From Holophagales bacterium (GTDB lineage: Bacteria > Acidobacteriota > Thermoanaerobaculia > UBA5066): a DNA stretch of 64,000 nt. The notes under the pieces were generated by a model that was given only the letters and a program-made list of their open reading frames with translations, was not told the DNA's origin and made no database searches. Below are positions 16,151 through 49,177 of the stretch, piece after piece (the stretch's first letter is position 1; each line of letters begins with the position of its first letter). The stretch is from positions 116,609 through 180,608 of the forward strand of contig JADKBZ010000016.1 in NCBI GenBank assembly GCA_016714815.1, in the 5' to 3' direction. The translations under genes and the position numbers were made by a program.

Positions 16151-16154
16151 CTTC

Positions 16155-19100: not shown

Positions 19101-22100
19101 TCGGGCGAGACGAACGCGCTCCTGGCCTCGGGAACGTGGAACGACATCGACGCTCTCGTGGCGGAGGGCGAGAGCTCGGGCCTCTTCACCCGGGAGCTCG
19201 GCGGGAGCTTCGCGGCGGTCGAACGCGCATGGGGCGTTCCCGTTCGCTGGGCGTCGTGGACCGTCCTCGCGCCCGTCGCCGACGTGAAAGCCGCGCTCGC
19301 GGGCGAGGAGAGGGTCCACCTCGCGATCGTCCACGGCGACGACGAATGCGTCGTCTCCGGCGACGAGGAGGCCTGCGCCCGCGTCGTCGAGGCGCTGGGG
19401 CCGAGCCGGGGCGTGCGCCTCGGCTACCCGCTCGCCGTCCACGTTCCCGAGCTCGACGCGGTCCGCGAGGAGTGGCTTTCCCTGCACCGCCGGCCGACGA
19501 CGCCGCCTCCTCCGGCCGGGTCGAATCCGCCCGCCCGCTTCTACACGAACGCCACCGGCGTCCGCTACGTGCCGACGTCCGAGAGCTGCGCGCAGGCGAT
19601 CCTCGGCCAGGCGAACCGGACGCTCGACCTGCGCCCGACCATCCTCGCGGCCTGGGAGGACGGCGTCCGCGTCTTCGTCGAGCACGGGCCGCAGGCGGCC
19701 TGCGGCCGCTGGATCCGCGCGATCCTCGGCGAGCGCGAGGCGCTCGTCGTCAGCCTCGACCGGAAGGGGCAGGGCCTCGAGGCGACGCTCGACGCCGTCG
19801 CGGCGCTCGTCGCCGCGGGCGTGCCGATGCGCGCCGGCGCTCTCGGCGAGCTCGACGCGATGCTGCGCGCCGAACGGCCCTCTCCTCCGAGCGGCCGGAG
19901 CGTGACGTTCCCGGCGCACCTTCCCGAGATCTCCCTTCCGAAGGTCCCGGCACCTGGCCTCCCGTCCGGCCTCGCGGGTGCTCGCGTCATGGCCCCGGCT
20001 CCGGCCCTGCCCGCGGTCGTCGACGAAGACTGGGCTCCGCGGCGGCGCGACCCCGACGTCCCGGCCGCTCCGCCCGTTCCGCCCGCCGAGACCGTTCCCT
20101 TGCCCGTGCGCGCGGTGCACGCGGCCGTTTCGCCCTCGCCCGTCTCCGTCGCTTCTCCCGTCCTCGACGGCTTCCGCGCGCACGTCGCGCAGCTCTCGCA
20201 GATCCAGCAGGACTTCGTCCTGGCGCAGCAGGCGCTGCACGAGCGCTTCCTCTCGGGGCGCGGCGCGGCGATGGAGACGTTCCTTTACGCGGCCCGTCTG
20301 GCGGGAACGGCGGAGAGTGTTCCGGCGTCGCCGCCGGGTCCGACCGTTTCGACCTCCACGCCGGCGGACGTCCGTGTGATTCCGATGTCCCCGGCGGCCG
20401 CGGCGCGTCCGGCGGCTTCGCCGTCCGTCGAGGCCCCTCGCGCCGGTGGCGATCCCGTCGGCCCCCGCTTCGACCGCGGCCAGCTCGAGATTCACGCCGG
20501 AGGGCGGATCTCCGGGCTCTTCGGCCCGGAGTTCGCCGCGCAGGACCGCCACGTTCGGCAGGTCCGGATGCCGCTCCCGCCGCTTCTCCTCGCCGACCGC
20601 GTCGTCGGCCTCGCGGCCGAGCCGGCGAGCATGGGGAAGGGAACGATCTGGACCGAGACCGACGTGACGTGGGATTCCTGGTACCTGCACCAGGGGCACA
20701 TGCCGGCGGGCGTGATGATCGAGGCGGGGCAGGCCGACCTGATGCTCATCTCGTACCTCGGCGTCGACCTCCTGAACAGGGGAGAGCGGGTCTACAGGCT
20801 CCTCGGCTGCGAGCTGACGTACCACGGCGACCTGCCGCGGGCCGGCGACACGCTCCGCTTCGGGATCCACGTGGACGGCCACGCGGCGCAGGGCGCCGTG
20901 CGGCTCATGTTCTTCCACTACGACTGCGTCAACGGCGGCCGGCCGCAGCTGACGGTGCGCAAGGGCCAGGCGGGCTTCTTCACCGACGAGGAGCTCGCCG
21001 CCTCCGCCGGGTGCCTCTGGAGCCCGGAAGAGCAGCCGGTCGTTCCCGATCCGCGCCTGGCGTCCCCCGCGGCTCGCTCGGAGCGGAGCCGCTTCGAGAG
21101 GGAAGACCTCGACGCGTTCGCCCGTGGCGACGCGTTCGCCTGCTTCGGCCCGGGTTTCGAGAAGGCGCAGACCCACACCCGGAGCCCGCGGATCCAGGAA
21201 GGGCGGATGCTCCTGCAGGACCGCGTCACCGACCTCGACGTCGCGGGTGGAGCGTGGGGGCGCGGCTACCTGCGCGCGGAGCTCGACGTTCGCCCCGACC
21301 TCTGGTTCTTCGACGGCCACTTCAAGAACGACCCGTGCATGCCCGGGACGCTGATGTTCGAGGGGTGCCTGCAGGCGATGGCGTTCTACCTCGCGGCCCT
21401 CGGCTTCACGCTTCCCCGCGACGGCTGGCGGTTCCGGCCCGTCCCCGACCTGCCGTACCAGCTTCAGTGCCGAGGCCAGGTCACCCCCTCGTCGCACCGC
21501 CTCGTCACGGAGGTGTTCGTCGAGGAGGTCGTCGACGGACCGGTCCCGACTCTCTACGCCGACCTTCTCTGCACGGTCGACGGCCTGAAGGCGTTCCACG
21601 CGCGGCGCGTCGCGCTCGAGCTCGTCCCCGACTGGCCTCTCGAGGCGATGCCGGCCCTCCTCGCCGAGGCCGCGAGAGACACGCGGCCGACGGCCGAGTC
21701 CGGCGGCTTCCGCTTCGACCAGGCGAGCCTCCTGGCCTGCGCGTGGGGAAAGCCGTCGAAGGCCTTCGGGCCGATCTACACGCGCTTCGACGGGCCGGGG
21801 CGCGTCGCCCGCCTCCCGGGGCCGCCCTACCTCTTCATGAGCCGCGTGACCCGGGTCGACGGCCCGATCGGTGTGATGAAGCCGGGGGCGTCGGTGACGG
21901 TCGAGTACGACGTTCCGGCCGACGCCTGGTACTTCGGCGAGAACGGCTGCCGGACGATGCCGTTCGCCGTCCTCCTCGAGGCGGTGCTGCAGCCGTGCGG
22001 CTGGCTCTCGAGCTACGTCGGCTCGGCGCTCAGCGTCGACGAGGAGCTCGGCTTTCGCAACCTCGACGGGACGGGGACGCTCCTCGGCGAGGTCTTCCCC

Positions 22101-24857: not shown

Positions 24858-24949
24858 GCGGGAAGGGCCGGACGGGGAACGGCTGCCCGCGGGGGCACGA
24901 GTCGGCCTTGCTTGCCCGCCCCGGCTGTCGGAGTCATCATGGCAGGTCG

Positions 24950-26482
24950 GTGAGAGGGTTCCGAAGTCTCCTGTCCGGCGCTCTGGCGCTGCTCGCCCTC
25001 CTGGGCGCCTCGTGCGGCCGAGAGCGCGACGCGGCCCCTGGTCGGGCGGAGCGGAGGCTCACGGTCGCGGTCCGCGCCGACATCACCGGGGTCTTCCCGG
25101 AGCCGCCGACGCAGAGAGAGTCGTTCACGATCGACCTCTTCTCGAACGTCCTCGAGGGGCCGTTCCGGCTCGACGAGAACCTCGCGGTGCAGCCGGCGCT
25201 CGTCTCGACCTGGACGAACCCGGACGATCGGACCTGGGTCTTCCGGCTGCGCGAGGGGATCCGGTTCTCGGACGGCACGCCCCTCACGTCCACGGACGTC
25301 GTCGCGTCGCTTCGGGCGGCGGTCGAGAAGCCGTTCCCTACGGGCGCGTTCCTCTCGGCGATCTCGAAGGTCGAGGCGAGCGGCCCGTTCGAGTTCCGGG
25401 TGACGACGCGGGAGCCGTCCGCGGTCCTTCCGTCCTATCTCACCGGCGCGTTCGTCATCTCGGCCCGGGCGCTCGCGATGAGCCCGATTCTCCCTGTGGG
25501 AACGGGGCCGTACGTCTACGCGGGCCGGGAGCCGGGGAAGGAGATCCGCCTCACCCGGAACCGGTTCCACGAACCAGCGGCTCCTTTCGACGAGGTGCTC
25601 CTCCGGGTCCTTCCCGATCCCGTCGAGAGGGTCGCCGCGCTCCTGGCGGGACGCGTCGACATCGCCGACGCCCTCCCCCTCGACGCGGTGGAGCGGCTCT
25701 CGCGCGAGAGCGGGCTGGTGGCCCTTACCCGCCCCGGAATCCGGGTCCTCTACCTCGCGCCGCGGGTCGACCGGCCGCCGTTCTCCGACCTGCGCGTCCG
25801 GGAGGCGCTCGACCTCGCGATCGATCGCGACGAGCTGAACGCCCGCGTCTACCACGGCCGTGGCACGCCCGCCTCGCAGCCGGTGCCGGTCGCCGTCGCC
25901 GGCTACGACGCCTCGATTCCCGTCGTCCGCGCCGACAGGACGCAGGCGCGCGCGCTCGTTCACGCGGCCTCGCGCGGCGCCGGGATCGACGTCGTCCTCG
26001 ACGCTCCGAGCGATCGCTACCTGAACGACGTGGCGCTCGCCCACGAGGCGAAGCGCCAGATGGAGCTCGCGGGCTTCCGCGTCACGGTGAGGGCGAGGCC
26101 GAAGGCGGAGTTCTTCCCCTCCCTCGCGAGGGGGGAGGCGCAGCTCTACCTCTTCGGCTGGGGGTGCGACACGCTCGAAGCGGGCGACATCCTGAACGGC
26201 GCCTTCCGTTCGCGCGCCACCTCGGGGGCGCGGAACGACAACTACCAGGGCCTCGCCGACTCCGTCGTCGACGGTGCCACCGACGCGGCGACCCGGGCGA
26301 CGGAGGCGGAGCAGAGGCTAGAACACCTGCACGCGGCGATGAACCGGCTTCGCGAGCTCCGGGCGACGATTCCGCTCGTCGTCATGCCCGAGACGATCGC
26401 GTACTCGAAACGGATCTCCTGGACGCCTCCCCCGACGTTCGTCCTGAGGCTTCACGAGGTCGGCCTGGCCCCGCCGCGCTGA
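24950..26482 (+). CDS. ABC transporter substrate-binding protein, family 5 (peptide/nickel type); orphan, probably a lipoprotein
   Basis: GTG at 24950 gives VRGFRSLLSGALALLALLGASCGRE, a signal peptide with a Cys. The rest has SBP_bac_5-like architecture. An upstream ATG at 24939 hits an in-frame TGA after 4 codons. Confidence 0.75.
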   Translation: MRGFRSLLSGALALLALLGASCGRERDAAPGRAERRLTVAVRADITGVFPEPPTQRESFTIDLFSNVLEGPFRLDENLAVQPALVSTWTNPDDRTWVFRLREGIRFSDGTPLTSTDVVASLRAAVEKPFPTGAFLSAISKVEASGPFEFRVTTREPSAVLPSYLTGAFVISARALAMSPILPVGTGPYVYAGREPGKEIRLTRNRFHEPAAPFDEVLLRVLPDPVERVAALLAGRVDIADALPLDAVERLSRESGLVALTRPGIRVLYLAPRVDRPPFSDLRVREALDLAIDRDELNARVYHGRGTPASQPVPVAVAGYDASIPVVRADRTQARALVHAASRGAGIDVVLDAPSDRYLNDVALAHEAKRQMELAGFRVTVRARPKAEFFPSLARGEAQLYLFGWGCDTLEAGDILNGAFRSRATSGARNDNYQGLADSVVDGATDAATRATEAEQRLEHLHAAMNRLRELRATIPLVVMPETIAYSKRISWTPPPTFVLRLHEVGLAPPR

Positions 26483-27698: not shown

Positions 27699-29549
27699 AT
27701 GAGGACTCGATCGCTGATCGGAATTCTCGCCGTGCTCTGCGTGGGCTGGCTCTTCGTGCTCGGGCCGGCCCTGCTCGCGTACGCGCGCATCCTCCGGAAC
27801 GCCGACGGCTATCGGCCGGCGGAGCTCGTCGTCACGGGGCAGAACTGCATCGGGGGGACGAGGGATTCGAAGGGGAGGAGCTCGCCCCGGTTCTGCTTCC
27901 TCGAGGGCAAGGTCGTGGAGGGAGAGGGGCCGGGCATCGAAGAGGAGATGTCTGTCGGCTCGGAGCTTCCCGCAGACAGGCCGGTCGGGACACGCGTCGC
28001 CGTCCACTACAACCCGGCCCTGCCGCCCTTCGGGATGAACTACTTCAACCTGAGAGTCCTGCCCCGGGAAGACGTCGGCCCCGCGACGATGGCCCGCCGA
28101 CGGCTGCTGAGGGCGACCCGCATCATCCAGCTCTCGCTCGGGCTCGCCCTCCTGGTTCACCTGCTCCTGCGCTGGGGGCGCCGCCGATTCACCAGGGAAT
28201 CGCCCGATTTCTCGGTGGACCTGGGCGGCGGCCATCCCGTGGGGGGCACGCTCCTCCTCAGCCAGGGGCTCGTGTTCCTGCTGGGGCAGGGCCGGAGCCC
28301 CGCTGTCGCCGGGATCATCCTGGGCCTCCTCCTGGTTCTGGCGGGAGTGCCGCTTCTCCTCCGCCGATACGCCGTCTTCTCGCGAGACCTCGGGGCCGTG
28401 ACCCGCGGACGGCAGTTTCTCGGGGTGAGCCTCGGTTCGACACCTTCCCCGTGGCCCGAGCCCCGGAACGTCGTTCTCGGAGTCGACGCGGGGCGCCTCA
28501 CGATCTCGATCTTCGGCTCGGATTCGACCGAGGTGATTCCGGGCCGCGAGACCTACGCCCGGAGCCGGGACCTCGCCGCGCGCCTGGCCGGGTACTTCAG
28601 GGTCGATCTGGAGGACCGGGCCGAGGCCCACCAGGAGCTCCTCAGGCAGGCGGACTGGCTCTCCGCGCCGCAGATCGTCCGCGCGCTGGGCCGGTGGGGC
28701 GTCGTCCTCGGCGGCGTCGTGCTGATTCTCGGAGGCGCGGCGCTCGCCGTCGATCGCGTCCCGAGCCTTCGCATGCCGGTCGTGAAGGAGATCCTCGACC
28801 CCTCGGGGCGCCTGAGGCACACGGCATCCCTGCGCGGCTGGGCGCTCTCCCGCCTCGAGCGGGATCCGTCGGACGAGGCCCTGCTCGAGCTGATGAAGGT
28901 CCTGAACACGGTCGACGCCGGCTCCTTCCCCGACGTCGCGGAGGACGTCGCTGCGGCGGCCCTGCGAAAGTCGGGACTTCCGCCCCTTCAGGGGGAAGGC
29001 CGCGACGGCCGCATTCTCCGGATCAACGCCTGGGCGTCCGTTCGACTCGGCCGTCCCCTCGACGACGGCGGCGGCCTGCTCGGCTGGTTCCCGGTCGACC
29101 CGCGATTCGCCCTCGAGGTCGAGAAGATCGCGGGCACGGACCTCCGGGAAGCCTGGTCGACCTGGAGCTTCATCGGCGCCGGCCAGCTGACGACCCCCGA
29201 GCAGTTTCTCTTCGCCCTCGGTGCGGCCCTCGGAGACCGGCGTCCCGTCCATTTCGCCATCCGGAAGGGGAGCTTTTTCCAGATCCCCGGGAGCGAACTC
29301 CCGTTCGAGGGGCAGCCGGAGCCGATCGAGGAGCATCCCGAAGCGATCGTTCGGACCGTGGGGGATGCGATCGCCATCCGCCTCTGGACGATGCAGGGCG
29401 TCGGCGACGAAAAGTTCCCCGAGGACTTCCTCGCCTGGTGGAGGGAGTGGGCGCGCGCCCGCCGGATACCGGTCGCAGGTCCGGCGATGGCTCCTCCGGG
29501 CGACGGGGCCGCGCCTTCGTCCGGTGGCGCCTCGGGGGCGATTCGTTGA
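27699..29549 (+). CDS. hypothetical polytopic membrane protein (616 aa)
   Basis: Several hydrophobic helices (ILAVLCVGWLFVLGPALLAYA, IIQLSLGLALLVHLLL, GIILGLLLVLAGVPLLL, VVLGGVVLILGGAALAV). No recognisable catalytic motif. Confidence 0.5.
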   Translation: MRTRSLIGILAVLCVGWLFVLGPALLAYARILRNADGYRPAELVVTGQNCIGGTRDSKGRSSPRFCFLEGKVVEGEGPGIEEEMSVGSELPADRPVGTRVAVHYNPALPPFGMNYFNLRVLPREDVGPATMARRRLLRATRIIQLSLGLALLVHLLLRWGRRRFTRESPDFSVDLGGGHPVGGTLLLSQGLVFLLGQGRSPAVAGIILGLLLVLAGVPLLLRRYAVFSRDLGAVTRGRQFLGVSLGSTPSPWPEPRNVVLGVDAGRLTISIFGSDSTEVIPGRETYARSRDLAARLAGYFRVDLEDRAEAHQELLRQADWLSAPQIVRALGRWGVVLGGVVLILGGAALAVDRVPSLRMPVVKEILDPSGRLRHTASLRGWALSRLERDPSDEALLELMKVLNTVDAGSFPDVAEDVAAAALRKSGLPPLQGEGRDGRILRINAWASVRLGRPLDDGGGLLGWFPVDPRFALEVEKIAGTDLREAWSTWSFIGAGQLTTPEQFLFALGAALGDRRPVHFAIRKGSFFQIPGSELPFEGQPEPIEEHPEAIVRTVGDAIAIRLWTMQGVGDEKFPEDFLAWWREWARARRIPVAGPAMAPPGDGAAPSSGGASGAIR

Positions 29550-29655: not shown

Positions 29656-30600
29656 TCACGGGCGGGACGTCGCCGCCCGCGAGGGAAGGGCGTTGGCAAG
29701 GGCCTCCTTGAGCGTCGCGCGGACGAAGCGGCCCCCGGCGCTCTCCTCCGTCCTCCGGTGCCCGTAGAGGTGGACCTCGATCGGGGCGATCTCGAGCGGA
29801 GGAGGGAAGACGCGGAGATCGAGCGGGCGGAGCTGAACCGGGGCGAGCCGCCGCGGCATCGTGAGGAGGAGGTCTGAGGTTGCGGCCACCAGGCAGGCCG
29901 TCTCGTACCGCTGGCAGCGGACGGCGACGCGCCGCCGGAGCCCCTGGGCGCCGAAGCGGAAATCCTCCAGGGTCGGGCCCGTGCGGCGCGAGGAGACCGC
30001 GACGTGGCCCGCCGCGAGATAGCCGTCGCGGTCCAGCTTGCGCCGGCCCTTCGCCGCGACGACGCAGAAGTCGTCCTCGAAGACCCGCTCGTGGACGAGG
30101 TCGTCCTCCGTCGGCCGGGCGACGTCGAAGGCGGCGTCGATCCGGCCCGCGGCGAGGTCCGCGCGCAGCTGCGCCCGGTCGAGGCGGACCGCCGAGAGCT
30201 CGAGGTTCGGGGCGGCTTCGCGGAAGCGCCGGACGATCGGGGGGACGAAGAGCGCCTCGAGCTCCTCCGGGAGGGCGAGGGTGAGGCGGGCGAGGTCCCG
30301 GCCCGGGTCGAAGCCCCGCCGGTCGACGAGGGCCTGCTCGACCGCGGCGAGGGCCTCGCGGACGGCCGGCGCGAGCCGGGACGCCATCGGCGTCGGGACG
30401 ATCCCGCGTCCCTGCCGGACGAAGAGGGGATCGCCGAGGTGGTCGCGAAGGCGGGCCACCGCGTGGCTGACCGCGGACGGGGAAAGGAAGAGCTCCTCCG
30501 CGGCGCGCCCCAGGCTCCGCTCCCGGTAGACGACGTCGAAGACGCGGACGAGGTTCAGGTCGAGGCGCTTCAGGCCAGGTGCGTCATGCACGGTGTTCAT
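29656..30600 (-). CDS. LysR family transcriptional regulator, divergent from the SDR/WS-DGAT operon
   Basis: N-terminal HTH LVRVFDVVYRERSLGRAAEELFLSPSAVSHAVARLRDHLGDPLFVR, plus a LysR substrate-binding domain. Confidence 0.9.
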   Translation of the reverse strand: MNTVHDAPGLKRLDLNLVRVFDVVYRERSLGRAAEELFLSPSAVSHAVARLRDHLGDPLFVRQGRGIVPTPMASRLAPAVREALAAVEQALVDRRGFDPGRDLARLTLALPEELEALFVPPIVRRFREAAPNLELSAVRLDRAQLRADLAAGRIDAAFDVARPTEDDLVHERVFEDDFCVVAAKGRRKLDRDGYLAAGHVAVSSRRTGPTLEDFRFGAQGLRRRVAVRCQRYETACLVAATSDLLLTMPRRLAPVQLRPLDLRVFPPPLEIAPIEVHLYGHRRTEESAGGRFVRATLKEALANALPSRAATSRP

Positions 30601-30658
30601 CTCGACTCATGCGAAGGATTCACTGGATTCATGATATCGCTGCGCCTACGCTTCGCCC

Positions 30659-31525
30659 GTGGCGCGACACGAGAGGCCCGGAGACGGGCCGGCGGGCGGG
30701 AAGAGGATCTTCGTCACCGGCGGCGCGTCGGGCCTCGGCCGCGCGCTCGCCGAGCGCTACGCCCGCGAGGGGTGGCGCGTCTGCATCGGCGACCTCGACG
30801 AGGCGCGGGGCGAGGCCGCTCTCGCCGGCCTCGCGGCGGGCGCAGAGCGCCGCTTCCTTCGCTGTGACGTGACGCACGAGGAAGACCTCGCCGCCGCGGC
30901 GCGCTGGCTCGAGGAGACGTGGGGCGGCGTCGACGTCGTCGTCAACAACGCGGGGGTGGCGGTGAGCGGGGGGATCGCCGAGACGCCGCTCGCCGACTGG
31001 CAGTGGATCGTCGACGTGAATCTTCTCGGAGTCGTCCGCGGCTGCAAGGTCTTCACGCCGCTCTTCCGGAGGATCGGGGGCGGCCACCTCGTGAACATCG
31101 CCTCCATGGCGGGGCTCGTCCACCCCCCGATGATGTCCGCCTACGCCGCCACGAAGGCGGCCGTGGTGGCGCTCTCCGAGGCGCTCCGGATCGAGCTCGC
31201 GCCGGACCGGATCGCCGTGACGGTCGTCTGCCCGGGCTTCTTCCGGACGAGCCTTGCCGACTCGGCGCGGGCCGCGAGCCCCGAGATCGACGGCGTGACG
31301 CGGGCTCTCGTCGTCCGGGCGCGCCGGACGGCTCCCGAGATGGCGGAGCTGATCTACCGGGGGGTGGAGCGGGGCGACTTCCTGGTCCTGACGCACCGCG
31401 ACGGGAAGCTCTCCTTCCTGCTGAAGAGGCTCCTGCCGTTCCCGCTCTACTCCCGGATCCTCGCGCGGGGCGCCCGGAAGATGCTCTCGCGGCGTCCGGA
31501 GCCGCGCCCGGCGAGCCCATCGTGA
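30659..31525 (+). CDS. SDR-family oxidoreductase
   Basis: Rossmann motif VTGGASGLG, NNAG, and catalytic S...YAATK. The likely start is the GTG at 30659. The stop overlaps the next gene's start in a GTGA. Confidence 0.8.
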   Translation: MARHERPGDGPAGGKRIFVTGGASGLGRALAERYAREGWRVCIGDLDEARGEAALAGLAAGAERRFLRCDVTHEEDLAAAARWLEETWGGVDVVVNNAGVAVSGGIAETPLADWQWIVDVNLLGVVRGCKVFTPLFRRIGGGHLVNIASMAGLVHPPMMSAYAATKAAVVALSEALRIELAPDRIAVTVVCPGFFRTSLADSARAASPEIDGVTRALVVRARRTAPEMAELIYRGVERGDFLVLTHRDGKLSFLLKRLLPFPLYSRILARGARKMLSRRPEPRPASPS

Positions 31526-33000
31526 CCACGAGCCCGGAGAGCTGGTCCGAGCGGCTGAGCGCTCTCGACGCGGGGTTCCTCGACCTCGAGGCGCCGAACG
31601 CCCCGATGCACGTCGGCTCGGTCTCGATCTTTTCCGGGAAGGTGCCCTCGCAGCGCGAGATGGCGGACCTCATCGCCTCGCGCCTCGACCGCGTCCCGCG
31701 CTACGCCCAGAAGCTCGCGTCCGTACCCTTCGGCCTGGGGCGTCCCGTCTGGGTGGACGACCCGGACTTCGACCTCGACCGGCACGTCCTCGCCACGTCG
31801 CTTCCTCGCCCCGGCCTTCCGGAGCTCCGGCGGTTCGTGGCCGACCTCTTCGCCCGCCCTCTCGACCGCGACCGGCCCCTCTGGGAATACTGGCTCCTCG
31901 GCGGCCTCGGGCGGGGCCGTTTCGCCGTCGTCACGAAGACCCACCACTGCATGATCGACGGCGTCTCCGGCGTGGACCTCGCCTCGACCCTGATGGAGAT
32001 CGACAGGCGGGCGCGGCGCACGGGTCCTCCGGTCTCTCTCGCGCCGCGCCCGGCACCCGGCGCGATCGAGCGCGTGAAGGACGCGCTCGGCGACCAGCTC
32101 TCGCGCCCGTTCGGCCTCGCGTTCGAGGCGATCAGGCCCGATACCCTGGGGCGGAGGGCGCTCGGAGAGATCGCGGGCGGGTTCGGCCCGCTGCTGGGCA
32201 TCGGGAAGCTGGGGCCCGCTCCCGCCTCCTCCCTCAACCGCACCGTCGGCCTCTCCCGCCGCTGGGAGATGGTCTCGCTCGACCTCGCGGAGGTGAAAGA
32301 GGTCCGCGGGGCGCTCGGCGGAACGGTCAACGACGTCGTCCTGGCGGTCGTCGCCGGCGGCCTCCGGAAACTCCTCCTCTCTCGCAGGGAGACGATCGGC
32401 GCTCCCCTCCGCGTCCTCGTCCCGGTCAGCGTCCGGGCTCCGGAGGAGCGGAGTGCCCTCGGCAACAGGGTGGCGGCCCTCTTCTGTCCCCTGCCGGTCG
32501 ACGAGCCCGATCCCCTTTCGCGGCTGCGCCTCGTCTCGGCCGCGACGAAGGGGCTGAAGGAGAGCCGGCAGGCGGTTGGCGCGATGGCGCTGACGCGCCT
32601 CGGCGACTTCGCCCCGCCGACGCTGGCCGCTCTCGCGACCCGCCTCCAGGCGATGGCTCCGTGGTTCAACGTCGTCGTCACGAACGTCCCCGGGCCCCAG
32701 CTGCCGCTCTACCTCCTCGGCCGCCGCCTCCTCGCCTGCCACCCGGCCGTGCCGCTCACCGTCGCGACGACGATCTCGGTCGCGCTCCTCAGCTACGACG
32801 GGTCGATAGACCTCGGACTCCTCGGGGACGGAGAGCAGGCGGCCGACCTGGCGGTCCTGGCGCGCGCCGTCAGGACGTCGCTCGCCGAGCTCGTCGGCCT
32901 GGCCAGAGCGACCGGAGGAGCCGGAGAGTCCAGAAAGTCCAGAGACGCCAGAGAAGGCGGAGAAGCCAGGGAAGCCGGAGACAGGTCGAACTCGAGATGA
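31522..33000 (+). CDS. wax ester synthase/acyl-CoA:diacylglycerol acyltransferase (WS/DGAT)
   Basis: The catalytic HHCMIDGVSG (HHxxxDG) motif is present, with typical WS/DGAT N- and C-terminal regions. The GTG start at 31522 overlaps the SDR stop. Confidence 0.9.
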   Translation: MTTSPESWSERLSALDAGFLDLEAPNAPMHVGSVSIFSGKVPSQREMADLIASRLDRVPRYAQKLASVPFGLGRPVWVDDPDFDLDRHVLATSLPRPGLPELRRFVADLFARPLDRDRPLWEYWLLGGLGRGRFAVVTKTHHCMIDGVSGVDLASTLMEIDRRARRTGPPVSLAPRPAPGAIERVKDALGDQLSRPFGLAFEAIRPDTLGRRALGEIAGGFGPLLGIGKLGPAPASSLNRTVGLSRRWEMVSLDLAEVKEVRGALGGTVNDVVLAVVAGGLRKLLLSRRETIGAPLRVLVPVSVRAPEERSALGNRVAALFCPLPVDEPDPLSRLRLVSAATKGLKESRQAVGAMALTRLGDFAPPTLAALATRLQAMAPWFNVVVTNVPGPQLPLYLLGRRLLACHPAVPLTVATTISVALLSYDGSIDLGLLGDGEQAADLAVLARAVRTSLAELVGLARATGGAGESRKSRDAREGGEAREAGDRSNSR

Positions 33001-33836
33001 CATACGTCCCGCGCGGAAAGCACACGATCTTCTACGACGTCACGGGCCCCGACGACGCCCCTCCTCTTCTCCTGGTGATGGGGATGGGCTTCTCCTCGCG
33101 TGCCTGGGCCTCGCTGCCGCAGCGCCTCTCCGAGCACTTTCGCGTGATCGCCTTCGACAACCGCGGAACCGGGAGGTCGAGCGGGTCGGGGATCGTCTTT
33201 CGCGTGCGGGACATGGCCGAGGACGCGGCCGCGGTCCTCGACGCGGCGAACGCCAAAGAAGCTCTCGTCTTCGGGATCTCGATGGGGGGAATGGTGGCGC
33301 TCGAGCTGGCGCTCTGCCACCCGGAGCGCGTCCGCAAGCTCGCTCTCGGAGCGACCTTCGCCGGCTGGCTGCAGAGCCGCAAGCCCTCGCCCTCGACGGT
33401 GGGCGGGGTCCTTCTAGGAGGGGTCCTCTCGCGCGTCGGGGCGCACCGGGTCCTCGGCGAGATCCTCGTCTCCACCGGCTTCGCGGGCCGGGACTACGAC
33501 AAGCTCTCGACCTGGATCGTGAACGGGGAGCGGGTCCGTCCGCACGTCCTGGTCCAGCAGATGACGGCGGTGACGCTCCACGGCACGACCTCGCGCCTCG
33601 GCTCGCTGAGCGTCCCCACGCTCGTCCTGACGGGCGACAGCGACCGGCTCGTCCCCGAGGAGAACTCGAGGCGCCTCGCGGGGCTGATCCCCGGCGCCCG
33701 TCTCGAGGTTCTGCCCGGCGCCGGGCACTGCTTCCCCCTCGAACAGCCGGACGCGACCCTCGCGCAGCTGCTCCGGTTCTTCGGCGAGAGGGTCCCGGCC
33801 GGGAAGGTCGAGGAGACGAAAGCGAGACGGAGGTAG
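32997..33836 (+). CDS. alpha/beta-fold hydrolase
   Basis: The ATG at 32997 overlaps the WS/DGAT stop (ATGA). The nucleophile elbow is GISMGG (GxSxG), and the C-terminus has GAGHCFPLEQPD (His of the triad). Confidence 0.85.
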   Translation: MTYVPRGKHTIFYDVTGPDDAPPLLLVMGMGFSSRAWASLPQRLSEHFRVIAFDNRGTGRSSGSGIVFRVRDMAEDAAAVLDAANAKEALVFGISMGGMVALELALCHPERVRKLALGATFAGWLQSRKPSPSTVGGVLLGGVLSRVGAHRVLGEILVSTGFAGRDYDKLSTWIVNGERVRPHVLVQQMTAVTLHGTTSRLGSLSVPTLVLTGDSDRLVPEENSRRLAGLIPGARLEVLPGAGHCFPLEQPDATLAQLLRFFGERVPAGKVEETKARRR

Positions 33837-33838
33837 GG

Positions 33839-35044
33839 ATGGACTTTTCGGAATCGGCAAAGGTGCGGACGATCCGCCAGGTGGTGCGGGACTTCATGGA
33901 GGCCGAGGTTTTCCCTCTCGAGCAGGCCTTCCTCCACGACGGGTTCGTCGCGATCCTCCCGGTCCTGAAGGAAAAGCGCGAGCGGGCCCGGCAGACCGGT
34001 CTCTTCGCGGCGCACGTCCCGGAAGCGTGGGGCGGGGCGGGGCTCTCGCTTCCCGAGTTCGCGAACATGAGCGAGGAGCTCGGCAGGAGCCCGCTCGGGC
34101 ACTACGTCTTCAACGTCCAGGCGCCCGACGTCGGGAACATGGAAGTCCTGATGGAGCACGGCACGCCGGAGCAGAAGGAGCGGTTCCTCGTCCCTCTCGT
34201 CCGGGGCGAGATCCGGAGCTGCTTCACGATGACGGAGCCGGAGTTCGCCGGCTCGAACCCGGTCCACATGGGGACGACGGCCCGCAGAGACGGAGGGGAG
34301 TGGGTCCTCCGCGGGCACAAGTGGTTCGCGTCGTCGGCGGACGGCGCGGCGTTCGCGGTCTGCATGGCAATCACCGACCCCGACGCGGCCGAGCCCCACC
34401 GGAGGGCGAGCACGATCCTCGTCCCGACGGACACGCCGGGCTTCGAGCTGATCGGAAACCTCTCCGTGATGGGGCACCGCGGCGGCGACTGGGCGAGCCA
34501 CGGCGAGGTCAGCTACCAGGACGCCCGCGTCCCGCTCGGAAACCTCCTCGGCAAGGAAGGGGAGGGCTTCGTCATCGCGCAGGAGAGGCTCGGGCCGGGA
34601 CGGATCCACCACTGCATGCGCTGGATCGGGGTCTGCGAGCGGGCGCACGAGATCCTCTGCCGGCACGCGGCGACGCGGGAGCTCTCGCCGGGAAGGCCGC
34701 TCGGGTCGAAGCAGATCGTGCAGCAGTGGATCGCCGAGAGCCGCGCCGAGATCCACGCGGCGCGCCTGATGGTTCTGCACGCCGCGTGGAAGATCGAGAA
34801 CGAGGGGGCCCGCGCCGCGCGCGAGGAGATCTCCCTCATCAAGTTCACCGTGGCCCGGACGCTCCAGCGCGTCCTGGACAGGGCGATCCAGGCCCTGGGC
34901 GGCCTCGGGATGACCGACGACACGCCGCTCGCCTTCTGGTACGCGCACGAGCGGGCCGCGCGAATCTACGACGGGGCCGACGAGGTCCACGTCGAGTCGG
35001 TGGCGCGCCGGATCCTCGGCCGCTACGGAATGCGCGCGCGGTGA
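33839..35044 (+). CDS. acyl-CoA dehydrogenase
   Basis: ACAD N-terminal, middle and C-terminal domains (FTMTEPEFAGSNP, GEGFVIAQERLGPGRIHHCMRWIG, YDGADEVH). The start is 2 nt after the hydrolase stop. Confidence 0.9.
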   Translation: MDFSESAKVRTIRQVVRDFMEAEVFPLEQAFLHDGFVAILPVLKEKRERARQTGLFAAHVPEAWGGAGLSLPEFANMSEELGRSPLGHYVFNVQAPDVGNMEVLMEHGTPEQKERFLVPLVRGEIRSCFTMTEPEFAGSNPVHMGTTARRDGGEWVLRGHKWFASSADGAAFAVCMAITDPDAAEPHRRASTILVPTDTPGFELIGNLSVMGHRGGDWASHGEVSYQDARVPLGNLLGKEGEGFVIAQERLGPGRIHHCMRWIGVCERAHEILCRHAATRELSPGRPLGSKQIVQQWIAESRAEIHAARLMVLHAAWKIENEGARAAREEISLIKFTVARTLQRVLDRAIQALGGLGMTDDTPLAFWYAHERAARIYDGADEVHVESVARRILGRYGMRAR

Positions 35045-36165
35045 AAGGCGCCGAAGCGGGAGCGGTCCGCGCCGCCGAGGACGGGGGAGCGCGCGGCGCG
35101 GGGGCCGTCCGGCGTGGCGAGGAGCTGGACCTCGCCGCCGTCGACGCCTTCCTCAAGCCGCGCGTCCCGGGCCTGGCGGGGAGCCCGCGCGTCACGCAGT
35201 ACGCGGGCGGGGCGTCGAACTGGACCTACCGGCTGGAGTACCCGTCGCACGACCTCGTCCTCCGGCGGCCCCCCGCCGGCACGAAGGCGAAGTCGGCGCA
35301 CGACATGGGGCGCGAGTTCCGCGTCCAGGCCGCACTCGGCCCCTTCTTTCCGTACGTCCCCGAGATGGTCGCGTTCTGCGACGACCCTTCGGTCCTGGGC
35401 TGCGAGTTCTACGTCATGCGGCGCATCGCGGGGGTCATCCCCCGCGCGAACCTGCCGAAGGGGATCGTCCTGACGCCCGACGAGGCGCGCCGGATGTGCC
35501 TCTCGGTCCTCGACCGGCTCGTCGACCTCCACCGCGTCGACGCGAACGCGGCGGGCCTGGCGGCCCTTGGCAAGGGCGCCGGCTACTGCCGGAGACAGGT
35601 GGACGGCTGGACGGATCGATACGCGAAGGCCCGGACGTGGAACGTCCCGCGATTCGCCCGCGTCACCAATTGGCTGAAGGCGAACACCCCCGACGACGTC
35701 GCCACCTGCGTCATCCACAACGACTTCCGGCTCGACAACGTCGTCCTCGACCCGGACGACGCGACGCGCGTCGTCGGCATCCTCGACTGGGAGATGGCGA
35801 CGCTCGGCGACCCGCTGATGGATCTCGGCAACAGCCTGGCGTACTGGGTAGAGGCGGGGGACGACTTCGTGATCCGCTCGATGCGGCGCCAGCCGACGCA
35901 CCTCCCCGGCATGCTCACGCGGCGGGAGGTCGTGGCCGCCTACTTCGAGCGGTCGGGCCTCCCCGCGCGGGACGTCACCTTCTACGAGGTCTACGGCCTC
36001 TTCCGCCTCGCCGTGATCGCCCAGCAGATCTACTTCCGCTACCACCGGGGCGAGACGAGGAACCCGGCCTTCAGGCGGTTCTGGATCCTGGCGCACTACC
36101 TCCAGTGGCGGTGCGGGCGATTGATCCGCTCATTCACTGATCCATTGATCCGCAACCGAGAGTAG
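35041..36165 (+). CDS. APH-like phosphotransferase family protein (the ACAD10/11-associated kinase type)
   Basis: The GTG at 35041 overlaps the ACAD stop (GTGA). Brenner motif IHNDFRLDNVVL and ILDWEMATLGDP are present. Confidence 0.8.
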   Translation: MKGAEAGAVRAAEDGGARGAGAVRRGEELDLAAVDAFLKPRVPGLAGSPRVTQYAGGASNWTYRLEYPSHDLVLRRPPAGTKAKSAHDMGREFRVQAALGPFFPYVPEMVAFCDDPSVLGCEFYVMRRIAGVIPRANLPKGIVLTPDEARRMCLSVLDRLVDLHRVDANAAGLAALGKGAGYCRRQVDGWTDRYAKARTWNVPRFARVTNWLKANTPDDVATCVIHNDFRLDNVVLDPDDATRVVGILDWEMATLGDPLMDLGNSLAYWVEAGDDFVIRSMRRQPTHLPGMLTRREVVAAYFERSGLPARDVTFYEVYGLFRLAVIAQQIYFRYHRGETRNPAFRRFWILAHYLQWRCGRLIRSFTDPLIRNRE

Positions 36166-36289
36166 GGACAGGAGGCCGCGGCGAGGGGGCTCGGCCCCAA
36201 TGCTGGACGAGTTCGACGCGCTGCCACCCTCAGGGATGGGAAGTCGATCTCGGGCGGCAGTGCGGCCGATCGGCGGGTTGGGCTTCGAC

Positions 36290-36400
36290 GGGCCCAGGGA
36301 CCTCGGGCGGTTCCTCGAGGGCGTGGCGCTGGCACGGGAGTGCTACGATGGATTTCGCGCGCTAACGCAGCGGCAAGCGGCCGCGTCAGCGGCTTCGCCC
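36290..36400 (+). pseudogene. diverged copy of the DAHP synthase 3' end (last ~30 codons) without a stop codon, in frame with the downstream Vgb-like gene
   Basis: At the DNA level, ggttcctcgagggcgtggcgctggcacgggagtgctacga... aligns with ggttcctcgaggacgtcgccctcgcccgggaatgctacga... at 27583-27662 (about 75-80% identity). At the protein level, FLEGVALARECYDGFRALTQRQAAAS aligns with FLEDVALARECYEKRRALVGRHAAAS. Confidence 0.45.
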
Positions 36401-36442
36401 CGCGGTGGGACAAGGCTGGTCCGAAAGAGAAGGAGGGTGGCG

Positions 36443-37450
36443 ATGATGGCGACCGGACGATTCCCCTCGAGTTGTCGCGACCTGCCCCTCCTCGTCCTCG
36501 CAGCGCTCGCGCTCCTGGCAGCCCCGGCCTCGGCCGTGGTTGTGACGAACGAGTTCGCGGTCCCGACGGTGGACGGCGCGCCCAACGGCATCACCACCGG
36601 CCCCGACGGCAACCTCTGGTTCACGGAGTACAACGGCAACCGGATCGGCCGGATCACGCCTTCGGGAGTCGTCACGGAGTTCACGGTCCCGACGGCGTAC
36701 GGCGCTCCGTCCAGCATCACCACCGGCCCCGACGGCAACCTCTGGTTCACGGAGAGCACCGGTAACCGGATCGGCCGGATCACGACGGCCGGAGCCGTCA
36801 CGGAGTTCGCCGCGGGTGGCGGCCCCTCCGGCATCGTGGCCGGCCCCGACGGAAACCTCTGGTTCACGGAGGTTTCCGGCAACAGGATCGGCCGGATCAC
36901 GACAGCCGGAGCCGTCACGGAGTTCACGCTCCCGACCGCGGACAGCTACCCTCATCAGATCACTTCCGGTCCCGACGGGAACCTCTGGTTCACGGAGTAC
37001 GGCGGCAACAGGATCGGACGGATCACGACCGCGGGAGTGATCACGGAGTTCACGGTCCCGACGGCGAGAGCCGCTCTCACCGGCATCACCTCCGGTCCGG
37101 ATGGCAACCTCTGGTTCACGGAGTACCTCGGCAACAGGATCGGTCGGATCACGCCTTCGGGAGTCGTCACGGAGTTCGCGATCCCGACGGAGGAAAGCGC
37201 TCCCTTCGGCATCACGACCGGCCCCGATGGTGCTCTCTGGTTTACGGAGAGCAATGGCAACCGGATCGGCCGGATCACCACCTCGGGAGTCGTCACGGAG
37301 TTCGGGATCCCGACAGCGGCCAGCTGCCCTCATCGGATCACGACCGGCCCCGACGGCGCCCTCTGGTTCACGGAGAACGGCGTCCACAAGATCGGTCGGC
37401 TCGTCGCATCCCCGGCGCCGGTGGAAGTGGTGTCGATCGGCGTGGACTGA
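36443..37450 (+). CDS. secreted Vgb-family (streptogramin-B-lyase-like) seven-bladed beta-propeller protein
   Basis: SD AGGAGGG lies upstream of the ATG at 36443. After a signal peptide (MMATGRFPSSCRDLPLLVLAALALLAAPASA) come seven regular ~42-aa repeats ITTGPDGNLWFTE..GNRIGRIT..G.VTEF.VPT. Confidence 0.75.
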   Translation: MMATGRFPSSCRDLPLLVLAALALLAAPASAVVVTNEFAVPTVDGAPNGITTGPDGNLWFTEYNGNRIGRITPSGVVTEFTVPTAYGAPSSITTGPDGNLWFTESTGNRIGRITTAGAVTEFAAGGGPSGIVAGPDGNLWFTEVSGNRIGRITTAGAVTEFTLPTADSYPHQITSGPDGNLWFTEYGGNRIGRITTAGVITEFTVPTARAALTGITSGPDGNLWFTEYLGNRIGRITPSGVVTEFAIPTEESAPFGITTGPDGALWFTESNGNRIGRITTSGVVTEFGIPTAASCPHRITTGPDGALWFTENGVHKIGRLVASPAPVEVVSIGVD

Positions 37451-39011: not shown

Positions 39012-39938
39012 GTGCAGATCGCCGTCCTCGCGCTCGCGTTGCTCCTCGCCGCCCCCGGCCTCTCGTTCGCACAGCCCCCGGGCTCGCGCGTCGTACTCGA
39101 CGTACCGCCGCGCTACACCGCGGCCACGCGTTTTTCCGGTTATCTCGACGAGCCGCGGGGCATCTCGATCGTGATCGCCGAGCTGCCGGGCGTGGCCTTC
39201 GACCAGATTGCCACGGGCATGACGCCCGGGGCGCTGGCCACCCAGAAGATGACGCAGTCCAAACGGGGCACGCTGGCGCGCACCGGCGACTACGTTTATC
39301 TCACCGCGGAGCAGACTCAGGCCGGTACCACCTACGGCAAGTTCCTGCTGGTCACGCGCGAGAACGACGTGACGGCAATCGTGACAGTGAACGTGCCGAA
39401 GGAGCGCCTCACGGCTGGGGACGCCACGGCGGCGGAGTTCGAGGCGATTCTGGCCTCGGCGCGCGTGGCCGGCACCGCCGCAGCCGAGAAGCCGCTCTTC
39501 ACGCTGGGCTACCTCGGGCCGTTCAAGCGGGCCGGTTCGTTCGGCGGTTCCGCCACGCTCTACACGCCCGACGGGGTGATCACGCCGGCCACGCCCGAAC
39601 CGGGGCGGCCCATGTTCCTGGTGGCGCCGTCGATCGACGAGCGGCCGGTCGGCGACCTCGAGGCGTTCGCGCGCCGGGCGCTCGAGGGCACGCGTGGCTT
39701 CTCGGATCTCACCGTGACGGCGACGCGCCCGCTCACCATTGGCGCCCTGCGCGCGGTGGAGCTGACGGCCACGGCCAGTGAAGCGAGCCAGCACACCGAC
39801 GTGGCCATCGTGCAGACCGTGGTCGTCTTGTCCGGCGGCGGCTACGTGCGGATGATGGGGCAGTCTTCGGCCGCCGACTGGGCGCGCCTGCTGCCGGAAT
39901 TCCGCAGGATGGCCGAGAGCTTCACGCCCGCGCCCTGA
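39012..39938 (+). CDS. secreted hypothetical protein
   Basis: Signal peptide MQIAVLALALLLAAPGLSFA. No recognised domain. Confidence 0.45.
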   Translation: MQIAVLALALLLAAPGLSFAQPPGSRVVLDVPPRYTAATRFSGYLDEPRGISIVIAELPGVAFDQIATGMTPGALATQKMTQSKRGTLARTGDYVYLTAEQTQAGTTYGKFLLVTRENDVTAIVTVNVPKERLTAGDATAAEFEAILASARVAGTAAAEKPLFTLGYLGPFKRAGSFGGSATLYTPDGVITPATPEPGRPMFLVAPSIDERPVGDLEAFARRALEGTRGFSDLTVTATRPLTIGALRAVELTATASEASQHTDVAIVQTVVVLSGGGYVRMMGQSSAADWARLLPEFRRMAESFTPAP

Positions 39939-40387: not shown

Positions 40388-40590
40388 GCTCAGGGCTCGG
40401 CGCCTCCGTACCTGGCAGGTCGAACGCGGCATCTCTCACGAGCACGCGACGCTCCGCGAGGTCCTGGCGGAGCTGGAGAATCCCGGGGCCGAGGTCCGTC
40501 GGCTCCCGCCGGCTCCATCCGCCGCCGCCCTCGCCGGGGACGAGACCCCGAAAGGGCGGCGGCTTCCGGAAATGGCCCGGAGGGCGCTCG
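40388..40590 (+). pseudogene. diverged copy of the pfa3 3' end (last ~55 codons) without a stop codon, abutting the 3' end of the truncated flotillin copy
   Basis: Translation ISHEHATLREVLAELENPGAEVRRLPPAPSAAALAGDETPKGRRLPEMARRALGGG aligns with the pfa3 C-terminus VAHEHATLHEVLAELENPGDEIRRLLAAPSAAALAGDESPEGRWLAELGRRLLGG. The DNA aligns with 24661-24857. Confidence 0.5.
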
Positions 40591-41758
40591 GCGGCGGACC
40601 CCTTCTTCAGCTCCCCGTCGTCGTCTTCTCCGCCGGCGCCCCGAGCCTCGCGACGACCTTCGCGAGGTCGACGCCAAACGCCGTCTTCACCTGCTCGACG
40701 AGCTGGATTCCCTGCGTTACGCGGGCAGAGGCGGGCAGGTAGGAGATCCGGTCGACCCTGACGCTCTGGATCGTCTCGACGAGAGACGACATGACGGTCT
40801 GGAGCTTCTGCATCAGGAAGATGTCGCGGGCGTTGGGGCCGGCGGCCTTCCAGGTTTCGATCATCTGCGTCAGGACGGCGGCGGTCGCGCGGCCGTCCTC
40901 GACGATCTTGGCGGCCTTGCCGCGCGCCTCGGCCTGCCTCTTCTCCATGTCGGCGCGGGCGGGGGCGACGACGTCGGCGTCGAGCTGGAGGCGGACCTGC
41001 TCGATGCGCGCCTGCTGCACCTTCAGCTCGGCCTCGGCCTTGGCGATGGCGGTGGTGACCTTGCCGACCGCCTCGGCGACCATCGCCTCGCGGCCGGTCT
41101 CGCACTGCATGATCCGCTTGTCGGCTTCCGCGCGGGCGATGGCGCCGTCGGCGTCGATCAGGGCGAGGCGCGACGCGAGGCCGTTCTCGGCTTCCCGCAT
41201 GGTGGCCTCGGCGTGGGCCTGCGCCTCGGCGATCCGGGCGCTCTTGTCGAGGGCGGCCGACTGCTTGCGGCCGAGGGAGTTGAGGTAGCCGACGTCGTCG
41301 GAGACGTTCTGGACCTTCAGGACGTCGAGCGTCAGGCCGAGGCGGGAGAGGTCGTGCTCGGCCTCCTCGAGGAGCTTCTCGGCGAAGCGGAGCTTGTCCT
41401 GGTTGACTTCTTCGGGGGTGAGCTGGGAGAGGACGCCGCGCAGATTCCCCTCGAGGGTGTCCTTGGCGACCTGGATGATCTGCGGACGACCCTTCCCGAG
41501 ATGCCGTTCGAGCGCGTTGTTGAGGAGCGGCTGGTGGCCCGCGACCTTCAGGTTGGCGACGCCGGCGACGGTGAGCGGGATGCCGCCCTTGGAGTAGGCG
41601 TTTCTCACGGCGACGTCGACGGTCATGTTGGTGATGTCCATCCGGTCGACCCGCTCCAGGAGCGGCGTGCGAAGGGAGCTGTCTCCCTTGACGATCCGGT
41701 AGCCGACGGGGCGGCCGTCGACCGTCGACTTGCCGCCGGAGAAGACGAGGACCTCGTT
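40571..41758. repeat. left copy of a ~1.2-kb direct repeat (flotillin gene body); its partner is 45917-47116
   Basis: The central ~620 bp is virtually identical between copies, with more substitutions toward both edges. Similarity ends abruptly after gaggacctcgtt (41758 in this copy, 47116 in the other). Confidence 0.85.
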
Positions 41759-41785
41759 CTTCTCTCCCTCACTCCCTGCCGGCAC
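40607..41785 (-). pseudogene. 5'-truncated flotillin/SPFH (YqiK-like) paralog lacking the N-terminal membrane anchor
   Basis: The product is identical over most of its length to the flotillin at 45966-47213. Its N-terminus (MPAGSEGEKNEVLVFSGG) replaces the MIGDLGSVVGVAIGVVLFFGVAALFVVKRLF anchor. Homology ends at the island junction. Confidence 0.5.
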
Positions 41786-48484: not shown

Positions 48485-48513
48485 GAATTACCTCCAGCGA
48501 CAGACGGTGTGGG

Positions 48514-49062: not shown

Positions 49063-49177
49063 GGTGGGGACAATTTACACCGTGCGGGGCGCGGTGGGGG
49101 CTGCAAGGAGACCACCCGGCCCGTGGACCCGGCTTCCCGGGCTGCCTCGTTTTCGGGAGGTGGCACTAAACTCCAGC

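Follow-up and report, generated by a model that had tools for sequence, protein, structure and literature searches.

A five-gene operon in Acidobacteriota joins split ACAD10/ACAD11-type genes with a WS/DGAT-hydrolase pair

What does a wax ester synthase/diacylglycerol acyltransferase (WS/DGAT) do in one operon with a kinase and an acyl-CoA dehydrogenase (ACAD)? This question was raised by a locus in a stretch of 64,000 nucleotides from a Holophagales bacterium (Acidobacteriota; GenBank assembly GCA_016714815.1, contig JADKBZ010000016.1, positions 116,609 to 180,608), in the following termed the window. There, five plus-strand genes (30659-36165) stand divergent from a gene for a LysR-family regulator and encode, in this order, a short-chain dehydrogenase/reductase (SDR, g1), a WS/DGAT (g2), an alpha/beta-hydrolase (g3), an ACAD (g4) and a kinase of the aminoglycoside phosphotransferase (APH) fold (g5). 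An earlier note, drawn up from the sequence, had read the operon as a neutral-lipid pathway and had linked it to the neighbouring pfa genes for polyunsaturated fatty acid (PUFA) synthesis. The comparative analysis led to a different picture. Judged by the distribution of the genes across genomes, the operon is composed, like a mosaic, of two sets that are each conserved independently, one formed by g1, g4, g5 and the LysR gene (set A) and the other by g2 and g3 (set B), since the WS/DGAT-hydrolase pair and the ACAD/SDR/kinase cluster each recur apart.

The window has a GC content of 72%, which made raw lists of open reading frames (ORFs) noisy, and genes were resolved with a frame plot of the GC content by codon position (GC3). 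A single minus-strand gene became visible at 29656-30600, followed by five plus-strand frames switching at about 31520, 32990, 33838 and 35040. The letters of all four junctions were read directly. The stop of g1 and the start of g2 overlap by 4 nt (atcGTGAcc, 31522-31525), as do g2 and g3 (gagATGAca, 32997-33000) and g4 and g5 (cggGTGAaa, 35041-35044), while g3 and g4 are separated by a gap of 2 nt (TAGggATG). Coordinates and junctions (GTGA, ATGA, 2-nt gap, GTGA) thus proved to be exactly those of the earlier note. The GTG start codons of g2 and g5 were assigned from the coupling and from homologues, and the start codons of g1 and the LysR gene diverge with 58 nt between them. In locus L001, where the junctions were called independently, the gene order was identical, with a 4-nt overlap, a 12-nt gap, a 2-nt gap and a 4-nt overlap, and the order of the block was also kept in locus L009. 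Since order and spacing recur in L001 and the order in L009, the arrangement is not a chance ORF geometry in DNA of 72% GC. Frame plot, junctions and the same order in both relatives together bear out that the five genes and the divergent LysR gene form a single genuine, translationally coupled operon. A consensus scan of the operon found no terminator-like sites above shuffled expectation (one site within g5, below expectation); the sigma-70 promoter consensus gave 0 matches in a scan that is uninformative at the high GC content of this genome. The operon ends at 36165. A Vgb-lyase-like propeller gene (36200-37450, + strand) was considered as a sixth member and rejected: its start probably lies at about 36443, some 280 nt past the kinase stop, its product has a signal peptide, its codon bias is less pronounced and it does not recur as a neighbour of the block.

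The last two genes gave the most specific clue to function. Comparing g4 (33839-35044, + strand, 401 aa, three ACAD domains) with solved structures, mouse ACAD11 was the top PDB match (8v3u, 289 bits), with a protein from M. abscessus next (4hr3, 280 bits). Classical ACADs (FadE3, SCAD) reached at most 163 bits and thus lay more than 120 bits behind ACAD11. Rashan et al. (PMC12440821) described as the signature of ACAD10, ACAD11 and LvaC a catalytic Asp (D753) and a helix carrying R626...H634-C-M-R637. In g4 the segment RLGPGRIHHCMR (aa 250-261) aligned to R626, H634 and R637 of mouse ACAD11, the phosphate-binding R...HHCMR motif, and Asp379 within IYDGADEV aligned to the catalytic D753. In enzymes of the ACAD10/11-LvaC type this Asp sits where canonical ACADs have their catalytic Glu. 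The partner g5 (35041-36165, + strand, 374 aa) matched PF01636 with 168 bits, the kinase domain of Caldalkalibacillus thermarum ACAD10 (9o56) with 280 bits over 326 residues and the ACAD11 kinase domain with 184 bits. Conserved motifs were HNDFRLDN (aa 226-233), DWE (aa 249-251), VLRR, REF and RRQV, of which the first four aligned to D214/N219/D234/R61/E78 of 9o56 and to D220/N225 of ACAD11; the residue numbering D214/K216/N219/D234 in the alignment with 9o56 agreed with PMC13596139. Moreover, GREF and CRRQV of g5 aligned to DREF and CKRQV of ACAD11 and thereby to the modelled CoA contacts R86 and R176, where the assignment of these two residues to the REF and RRQV positions is our interpretation of PMC12440821. 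The earlier note had named an ACAD10/11-type kinase, which both PDB matches and the aligned catalytic residues confirmed. At the level of aligned residues, g4 and g5 are a bacterial split ACAD10/ACAD11 of the LvaC/LvaA type, and the predicted activity of g4 is the elimination of phosphate from 4-phosphoacyl-CoA.

The biochemistry of this enzyme type was shown for mouse and human ACAD10/11, for LvaA/LvaC of P. putida and for the split proteins of B. pseudomallei (PMC12440821, PMC11342911). According to Paquay et al. (PMC11342911), the split Burkholderia orthologues substitute for the ACAD10 domains and convert 4-hydroxyhexanoyl-CoA via a 4-phospho intermediate to 2-enoyl-CoA. With mammalian ACAD10/ACAD11 and the split B. 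pseudomallei orthologues the window proteins share their solved relatives, ACAD11 being among the leading ones for both g4 and g5. HxDxxxxN, DWE, the R...HCMR of the ACAD and the catalytic Asp are common to the window and the mammalian proteins, and the coupling of g4 to g5 through the 4-nt overlap is the split equivalent of the fusion. In contrast to the mammalian enzymes, the window has two polypeptides, ACAD first and kinase second, and no HAD domain; its ACAD belongs to the IYDGADEV and not the L/IADGPDEV sub-clade, and WS/DGAT and esterase are embedded in the same operon. The lvaABCDE levulinate operon of P. putida (Rand et al., 2017, as presented in PMC12440821) likewise combines an LvaA-like kinase, an LvaC-like ACAD and an SDR, and its 4-phosphoacyl-CoA intermediate would be shared. 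However, the full lvaA-E set is not present, with neither an LvaB-like small gene nor an LvaE/AMP-binding ligase within 30659-36165. The window regulator is of the LysR family, whereas that of the lva operon is of the sigma-54 type. LvaA is 29% identical to the ACAD10 kinase (PMC11342911); g5 falls into a bacterial group closer to ACAD10 than LvaA, and g1 may correspond to LvaD in its role.

How these genes are usually accompanied was analyzed in a metagenome scan seeded with g5, which yielded 80 loci and was evaluated by tblastn and ORF clustering. All comparative sets consisted of contigs from metagenomes and metagenome-assembled genomes (MAGs), many of them short. An ACAD gene was found directly upstream of the kinase gene in 44 of 48 evaluable loci, and every ACAD ORF spanning the relevant regions had the HH[CA]MR motif or the catalytic Asp. 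These ACADs formed two sub-clades, one with IYDGADEV as in the window and one with L/IADGPDEV, the mammalian form. SDRs similar to g1 (45-66% identity) were located within the ACAD/kinase cluster in at least nine loci. The pattern of a LysR gene divergent from ACAD-SDR-kinase-His_Phos_1-SDR2, where SDR2 is a PRK08251 SDR, was complete in five loci, namely L108 (6878-12573), L131, L135, L163 and L167. Histidine phosphatase genes were present in 14 of 57 evaluable loci; mammalian ACAD10, with its fused HAD phosphatase domain, offers a parallel. Around subtype-A ACAD-kinase pairs elsewhere in the metagenome set, the flanking genes varied and said nothing more about function. Of the kinase-seeded loci, 26 extended for 4.5 kb or more upstream, and none of them carried a WS/DGAT gene.

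To which of the two sets does the SDR belong? The protein g1 (30659-31525, + strand, 288 aa) is a classical SDR with the motifs TGGASGLG, NNAG and YAATK and passed the PRK05650 equivalog model NF004196 with 343.4 bits (cutoff 297). In SDRs generally, an Asp ending beta2 points to NAD(H). Because such an Asp is found in g1 (GDLD), the enzyme probably uses NAD(H). Its Pfam matches were limited to adh_short, adh_short_C2, KR and Epimerase; the Pfam search did not detect the fatty-acyl-reductase (FAR) domain NAD_binding_4/Sterile in g1, which also failed the PRK06181 model (149.8 bits, cutoff 215). SDRs of the PRK06181 type were the neighbours of distant WS/DGAT paralogues in Binatia (L049, L054, L076). 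The SDRs embedded in the clusters of L108, L131, L093 and L147, from unrelated bacteria, passed PRK05650 at 333-367 bits, and WS/DGAT-hydrolase pairs elsewhere came without an SDR of this type. By these comparisons SDR and LysR belong to the ACAD/kinase set rather than to the WS/DGAT. Because the PRK05650 type recurs with ACAD and kinase and not with WS/DGAT, g1 would not act as a wax-ester reductase, and the proposal that SDR and WS/DGAT constitute the minimal wax-ester route was not sustained.

The acyltransferase itself was confirmed. For g2 (31522-33000, + strand, 492 aa), PF03007 (202.8 bits, cutoff 23.6) and PF06974 (109.7 bits, cutoff 20.7) were far above their cutoffs, TIGR02946 was matched with 418.1 bits (cutoff 309.95), and the catalytic HHxxxDG context, named in the earlier note as a check, was found as HHCMIDG (aa 141-147, nt 31942-31962). 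By domain and motif content g2 is a genuine member of the WS/DGAT family with an intact catalytic motif and predicted acyltransferase activity. The other family assignments (LysR, SDR, alpha/beta hydrolase, ACAD, APH-like kinase) held in Pfam and NCBIfam as well. Solved relatives of g2 were the WS/DGAT of Marinobacter (Ma2, 6chj) and the WSD of Acinetobacter (A. baylyi AtfA/WSD1, 7nxg), with which it shares the two-domain architecture, HHxxxDG, the ND motif and a TIGR02946 score above cutoff. It differs from both by its distance (165-173 bits) and by its membership in a clade of Myxococcota and Acidobacteriota characteristically followed by an alpha/beta-hydrolase gene. The hydrolase g3 (32997-33836, + strand, 279 aa, Abhydrolase_1/6 and Hydrolase_4) is carboxylesterase-like, with GISMG (Ser95), GDSD and GH as motifs. 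Its closest solved relatives were carboxylesterases/esterases (Est1 8v16 and 6eb3), and its best NCBIfam matches were PcaD enol-lactonases at 140-149 bits, below cutoff.

A genome scan seeded with g2, evaluated by annotated contexts and tblastn, found the closest loci in Thermoanaerobaculia/Acidobacteriota. Proteins identical to those of the window are on deposit from Holophagales MAGs. Both findings place the host among the acidobacteria and speak against the myxobacterial origin at first suggested by the AGPAT-fused pfa3. Within the g2 clade (at least 52% identity) a g3-like hydrolase gene came next in 13 of 17 evaluable loci, usually unaccompanied by SDR, ACAD or kinase genes; the pair stood apart from the whole SDR/ACAD/kinase set in L003-L005, L008, L014, L015 and L017-L020. 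By this distribution WS/DGAT and alpha/beta-hydrolase are a separately conserved pair. In L004 (8265-12194, a Polyangiaceae MAG) the pair is divergently adjoined by a gene for a GlpD-like glycerol-3-phosphate dehydrogenase (DAO + DAO_C), which hints at an action on glycerolipids. A different arrangement was observed for the WS/DGAT paralogues of Binatia (40-43% identity to g2; L049 10001-13571, L054 10001-13590, L076 4895-7278). They are followed by the PRK06181-type SDR, which is also similar to the SDR half at the C-terminus of PRK07201 reductases, and in L049 and L054 next by a protein of 361-373 aa without NCBIfam match at E<=1e-40. This may be a genuine pairing of synthase and reductase, distinct from that in the window.

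Both sets come together rarely. Apart from the window, the full block of LysR, SDR, WS/DGAT, hydrolase, ACAD and kinase was found in L001 and L009 alone, and partial blocks in L010 (His_Phos-WS/DGAT-hydrolase-ACAD-kinase) and L090 (hydrolase-ACAD-kinase, at a contig end). As L001, L009 and L010 were found via g2, they are unusable for frequency estimates. Canonical partners of the ACAD/kinase cluster flank the block, with His_Phos upstream and a long ACAD downstream in both L001 and L009 and SDR2 downstream in L009. From these loci, set B appears inside set A only in a small clade of Acidobacteriota, located between SDR and ACAD. Lactonase-like six-bladed beta-propeller genes were observed beside the block in two genomes: the Vgb_lyase/SGL protein of the window with its signal peptide, and a Str_synth/SGL protein in L010 (8215-9282), upstream of His_Phos-WS/DGAT. 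The two propellers come from separate families, and neither accompanies the block in a conserved manner; a connection with gamma-lactone or 4-hydroxy-acid chemistry is conceivable but speculative.

The regulator (29656-30600, - strand, 314 aa) consists of PF00126 (HTH_1, 74.8 bits) and the substrate-binding domain PF03466 (80.3 bits). Orthologues with 62-66% identity occupy the same position in L001 and L009, and LysR genes at 36-42% identity are divergent from the ACAD-SDR-kinase clusters in L108, L110, L131 and L135. The 58-nt region between LysR gene and g1 (30601-30658), which carries the block ATTCACTGGATTCATGATA in the window, contains a core, TTCAyTkGwTTCATsATA, conserved in the alignment with L001 and L009 (window 30620-30640, about 9100-9120 in L001 and L009). 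By its conservation and position this core is a candidate LysR operator and putative promoter element, and the region as a whole may hold a LysR box and promoters.

What would such an operon do? We give a probability of roughly 60% to a combination of 4-hydroxyacyl-CoA entry into beta-oxidation, provided by set A, with neutral-lipid ester turnover, provided by set B, under one LysR regulator. Judged by the families involved, this combination is its most likely function. In this pathway g5 would phosphorylate the 4-hydroxyl group of 4-hydroxyacyl-CoA, and g4 would eliminate phosphate from the resulting 4-phosphoacyl-CoA to yield 2-enoyl-CoA for beta-oxidation. This is the best-supported step, with a chemistry known from the orthologues and transferred to the window by residue-level identity. 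The SDR g1 may interconvert 4-oxo- and 4-hydroxyacyl-CoA like LvaD, or may oxidise a 3-hydroxyacyl-CoA side product. WS/DGAT and hydrolase would make and hydrolyse neutral-lipid esters such as triacylglycerol (TAG) or wax esters. The shared LysR regulator suggests that ester turnover is coordinated with the removal of 4-hydroxylated acyl chains, which would be intractable to ordinary beta-oxidation. Gene structure, family and residue membership and the modular distribution are observed; what the enzymes act on, which way the flux runs and why, physiologically, both sets were combined is inferred. Several points weigh against this interpretation. An acyl-CoA synthetase, a hydratase and a thiolase are absent from the operon, which means that it does not encode a complete catabolic route. 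The gene order, with the SDR first and ACAD-kinase last, differs from the canonical ACAD-SDR-kinase, and therefore the history of the block was not a simple insertion. The GTGA overlap between SDR and WS/DGAT, conserved in L001 and L009, could mark a real biochemical link between the two. Finally, the in vivo substrate of the ACAD10-type kinase is contested, given the data of PMC13596139.

These data form the basis of the main rival explanation, the salvage of acylglycerols or ether lipids, which we regard as unlikely. Here the esterase would free monoacyl- or alkylglycerol, the kinase would convert it to lysophosphatidic acid or alkylglycerol 3-phosphate for phospholipid synthesis, and the WS/DGAT, as MGAT/DGAT, would represent the opposing branch. 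In the 2026 preprint PMC13596139, ACAD10-type kinase domains phosphorylated 1-O-alkyl- and 1-O-acylglycerols in vitro in a CoA-stimulated manner; active enzymes included several prokaryotic homologues, among them the protein crystallised as 9o56. The authors call the relation of this glycerol kinase activity to the 4-hydroxy-acid activity unclear. As 9o56, reported to be a 1-O-alkylglycerol kinase, is the best solved relative of g5 and shares its catalytic residues, salvage gains some weight, as it does from the physical placement of WS/DGAT and esterase beside the kinase, which is what this model predicts, and from the GlpD-like neighbour of the pair in L004. However, g5 has HNDFR where 9o56 has HYDYK, and it retains the residues that were modelled as contacts to the CoA of an acyl-CoA substrate (PMC12440821). 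It is furthermore coupled to an ACAD in which all residues ascribed to the binding of 4-phosphoacyl-CoA and to elimination are intact, which salvage leaves unexplained. The glycerol kinase activity was observed in vitro and reported in a preprint only. The intact ACAD and the rare association with WS/DGAT, absent from all 26 evaluable kinase-seeded loci, argue against salvage as a general explanation.

Improbable is also the model of the earlier note, in which the SDR makes an alcohol from acyl-CoA or aldehyde, the WS/DGAT esterifies it, the other three proteins remodel the products and the PUFA come from the pfa synthase. In its favour, the WS/DGAT is genuine with an intact motif, and in three genomes its gene is translationally coupled to that of the SDR. 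SDR-family acyl-CoA reductases do exist (Acinetobacter Acr1). As outlined above, however, the PRK05650-type SDR travels with ACAD10/11-type genes, is absent from other WS/DGAT-hydrolase pairs, lacks the FAR domain and fails PRK06181. The supply of PUFA depends on the adjacency of the pfa1-3 genes (8109-24857, on the strand of the operon), of the type described for myxobacteria. They are lipid-related physical neighbours, and pfa3 ends in an AGPAT-like acyltransferase domain 6.7 kb upstream of g2. Between pfa3 and the LysR gene, however, lie three unrelated genes, for an SBP_bac_5 protein, a DAHP synthase and a 616-aa protein without family, the last being convergent with the LysR gene. None of the three block-bearing relatives (L001, L009, L010) had pfa1-3 within 10 kb of the block, and none of the three relatives of the pfa3 C-terminus (L168 with 87% nucleotide identity across pfa2/3, L169 and L170 with about 60% amino-acid identity) had any of the operon genes in the 10 kb that follow pfa3.

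A comparison with L168 showed how the adjacency may have arisen. A 172-bp direct repeat at 24670-24841 (+ strand), the true coding 3' end of pfa3, is 82% identical to a second copy at 40411-40582 (+ strand), which is a non-coding leftover of the pfa3 3' end and directly adjoins a Band_7 gene (40607-41785). In L168, a Band_7 3' fragment directly follows the pfa3 stop, positions 11499-11809 are colinear with window 40411-40739, and 17293-20442 match window 45973-49107 at 93%. The segment 24842-40410 (about 15.6 kb, 13 genes), which carries the operon, is thus flanked by the repeats and absent from this site in L168. Because the segment is repeat-bracketed and missing from the site in this close relative, the sequence comparison indicates that the adjacency of pfa genes and operon reflects a recent, lineage-specific indel at a variable site, a hotspot at which the segment was either gained in the window lineage or lost in L168. 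The operon does not belong to the pfa locus and forms a separate transcription unit in a neighbourhood that is not conserved. The claim that it channels the pfa product into glycerolipids or storage lipids failed in all three synteny tests.

Least probable of all, an operon dedicated to esters or lactones of hydroxy fatty acids, in which the WS/DGAT would acylate 4-hydroxy acids or the hydrolase would cleave their esters or gamma-lactones as a storage or detoxified form and the freed chains would pass to kinase and ACAD, would place all five genes on one substrate class and would suit the sub-cutoff enol-lactonase matches of g3 and the lactonase-like propellers beside the block in the window and L010, but among solved proteins g3 comes closest to ordinary carboxylesterases, the propellers are of different families, one with a signal peptide and neither conserved with the block, and the operon has no acyl-CoA ligase to activate the freed hydroxy acid.

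The surroundings of the operon showed further signs of rearrangement. As called, the SBP_bac_5 gene (24818-26482) shares its first 40 nt (24818-24857) with the end of pfa3, a stretch that runs within the repeat 24670-24841 to its right edge and 16 nt beyond. Because this overlap falls in the pfa3 3'-end repeat, the start is doubtful and the true one may lie further downstream. Band_7 genes were found at 40607-41785, 45966-47213 and 47210-48484. A direct repeat of 1135 bp with 95.6% identity (40625-41759 and 45972-47106) corresponds to duplicated Band_7/SPFH genes and brackets a stretch of 62% GC in surroundings of 72%, which encodes a subtilase of 935 aa (42176-44983). The arrangement suggests that a second insertion has nested at this hotspot; Band_7 3'-end fragments occur in L168 too, at 11692-11808 and 12698-13060. 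A second stretch of 62% GC with a strong positive GC skew extends over 58000-64000, where an ORF of 1047 aa (59888-63031) and two smaller ORFs had no Pfam match. The same was true for two GC3-supported coding regions of 616 aa (27699-29549, the convergent neighbour of the LysR gene) and 308 aa (39012-39938). Rfam and tRNA scans across the whole window found nothing, which excludes rRNA as an explanation of the 62%-GC stretches.

All six proteins belong to known families and were already named by automated annotation. New appears to be their combination: both the cluster of ACAD10/11-type genes that recurs in bacteria together with SDR, histidine phosphatase and LysR regulator, and its variant with embedded WS/DGAT and esterase, appear to be undescribed. 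In the library searched, no publication joined "wax ester" with "ACAD1*", and a search on bacterial 4-hydroxyacyl-CoA or lactone pathways found nothing beyond the work on ACAD10/11 (PMC12440821, PMC11342911). The presence of a related phosphotransferase in the beta-oxidation operon H16_A1526-A1531 of Cupriavidus necator was considered but not borne out by the publications consulted. The tempting conclusion that products of the PUFA synthase pass into wax esters or TAG via the operon is removed as unsupported. The function of ACAD10 and ACAD11 was assigned only in 2024-2025 and was disputed by the 2026 preprint proposing an ether-lipid/acylglycerol kinase activity, while the gene neighbourhoods of the bacterial split orthologues are essentially undescribed. 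There is an outside chance that WS/DGAT and esterase are functionally integrated with kinase and ACAD, for example with a kinase that acts on monoacyl- or alkylglycerols or on hydroxy-acyl esters in vivo. If so, the operon would be a natural genetic link between neutral-lipid esters and ACAD10/11 chemistry and could help to settle the dispute between 4-hydroxy-acid catabolism and (ether) glycerolipid salvage. The rare variant of Acidobacteriota offers a compact, expressible five-gene system in which the lipid substrates of these kinases and the role of the conserved SDR could be examined.

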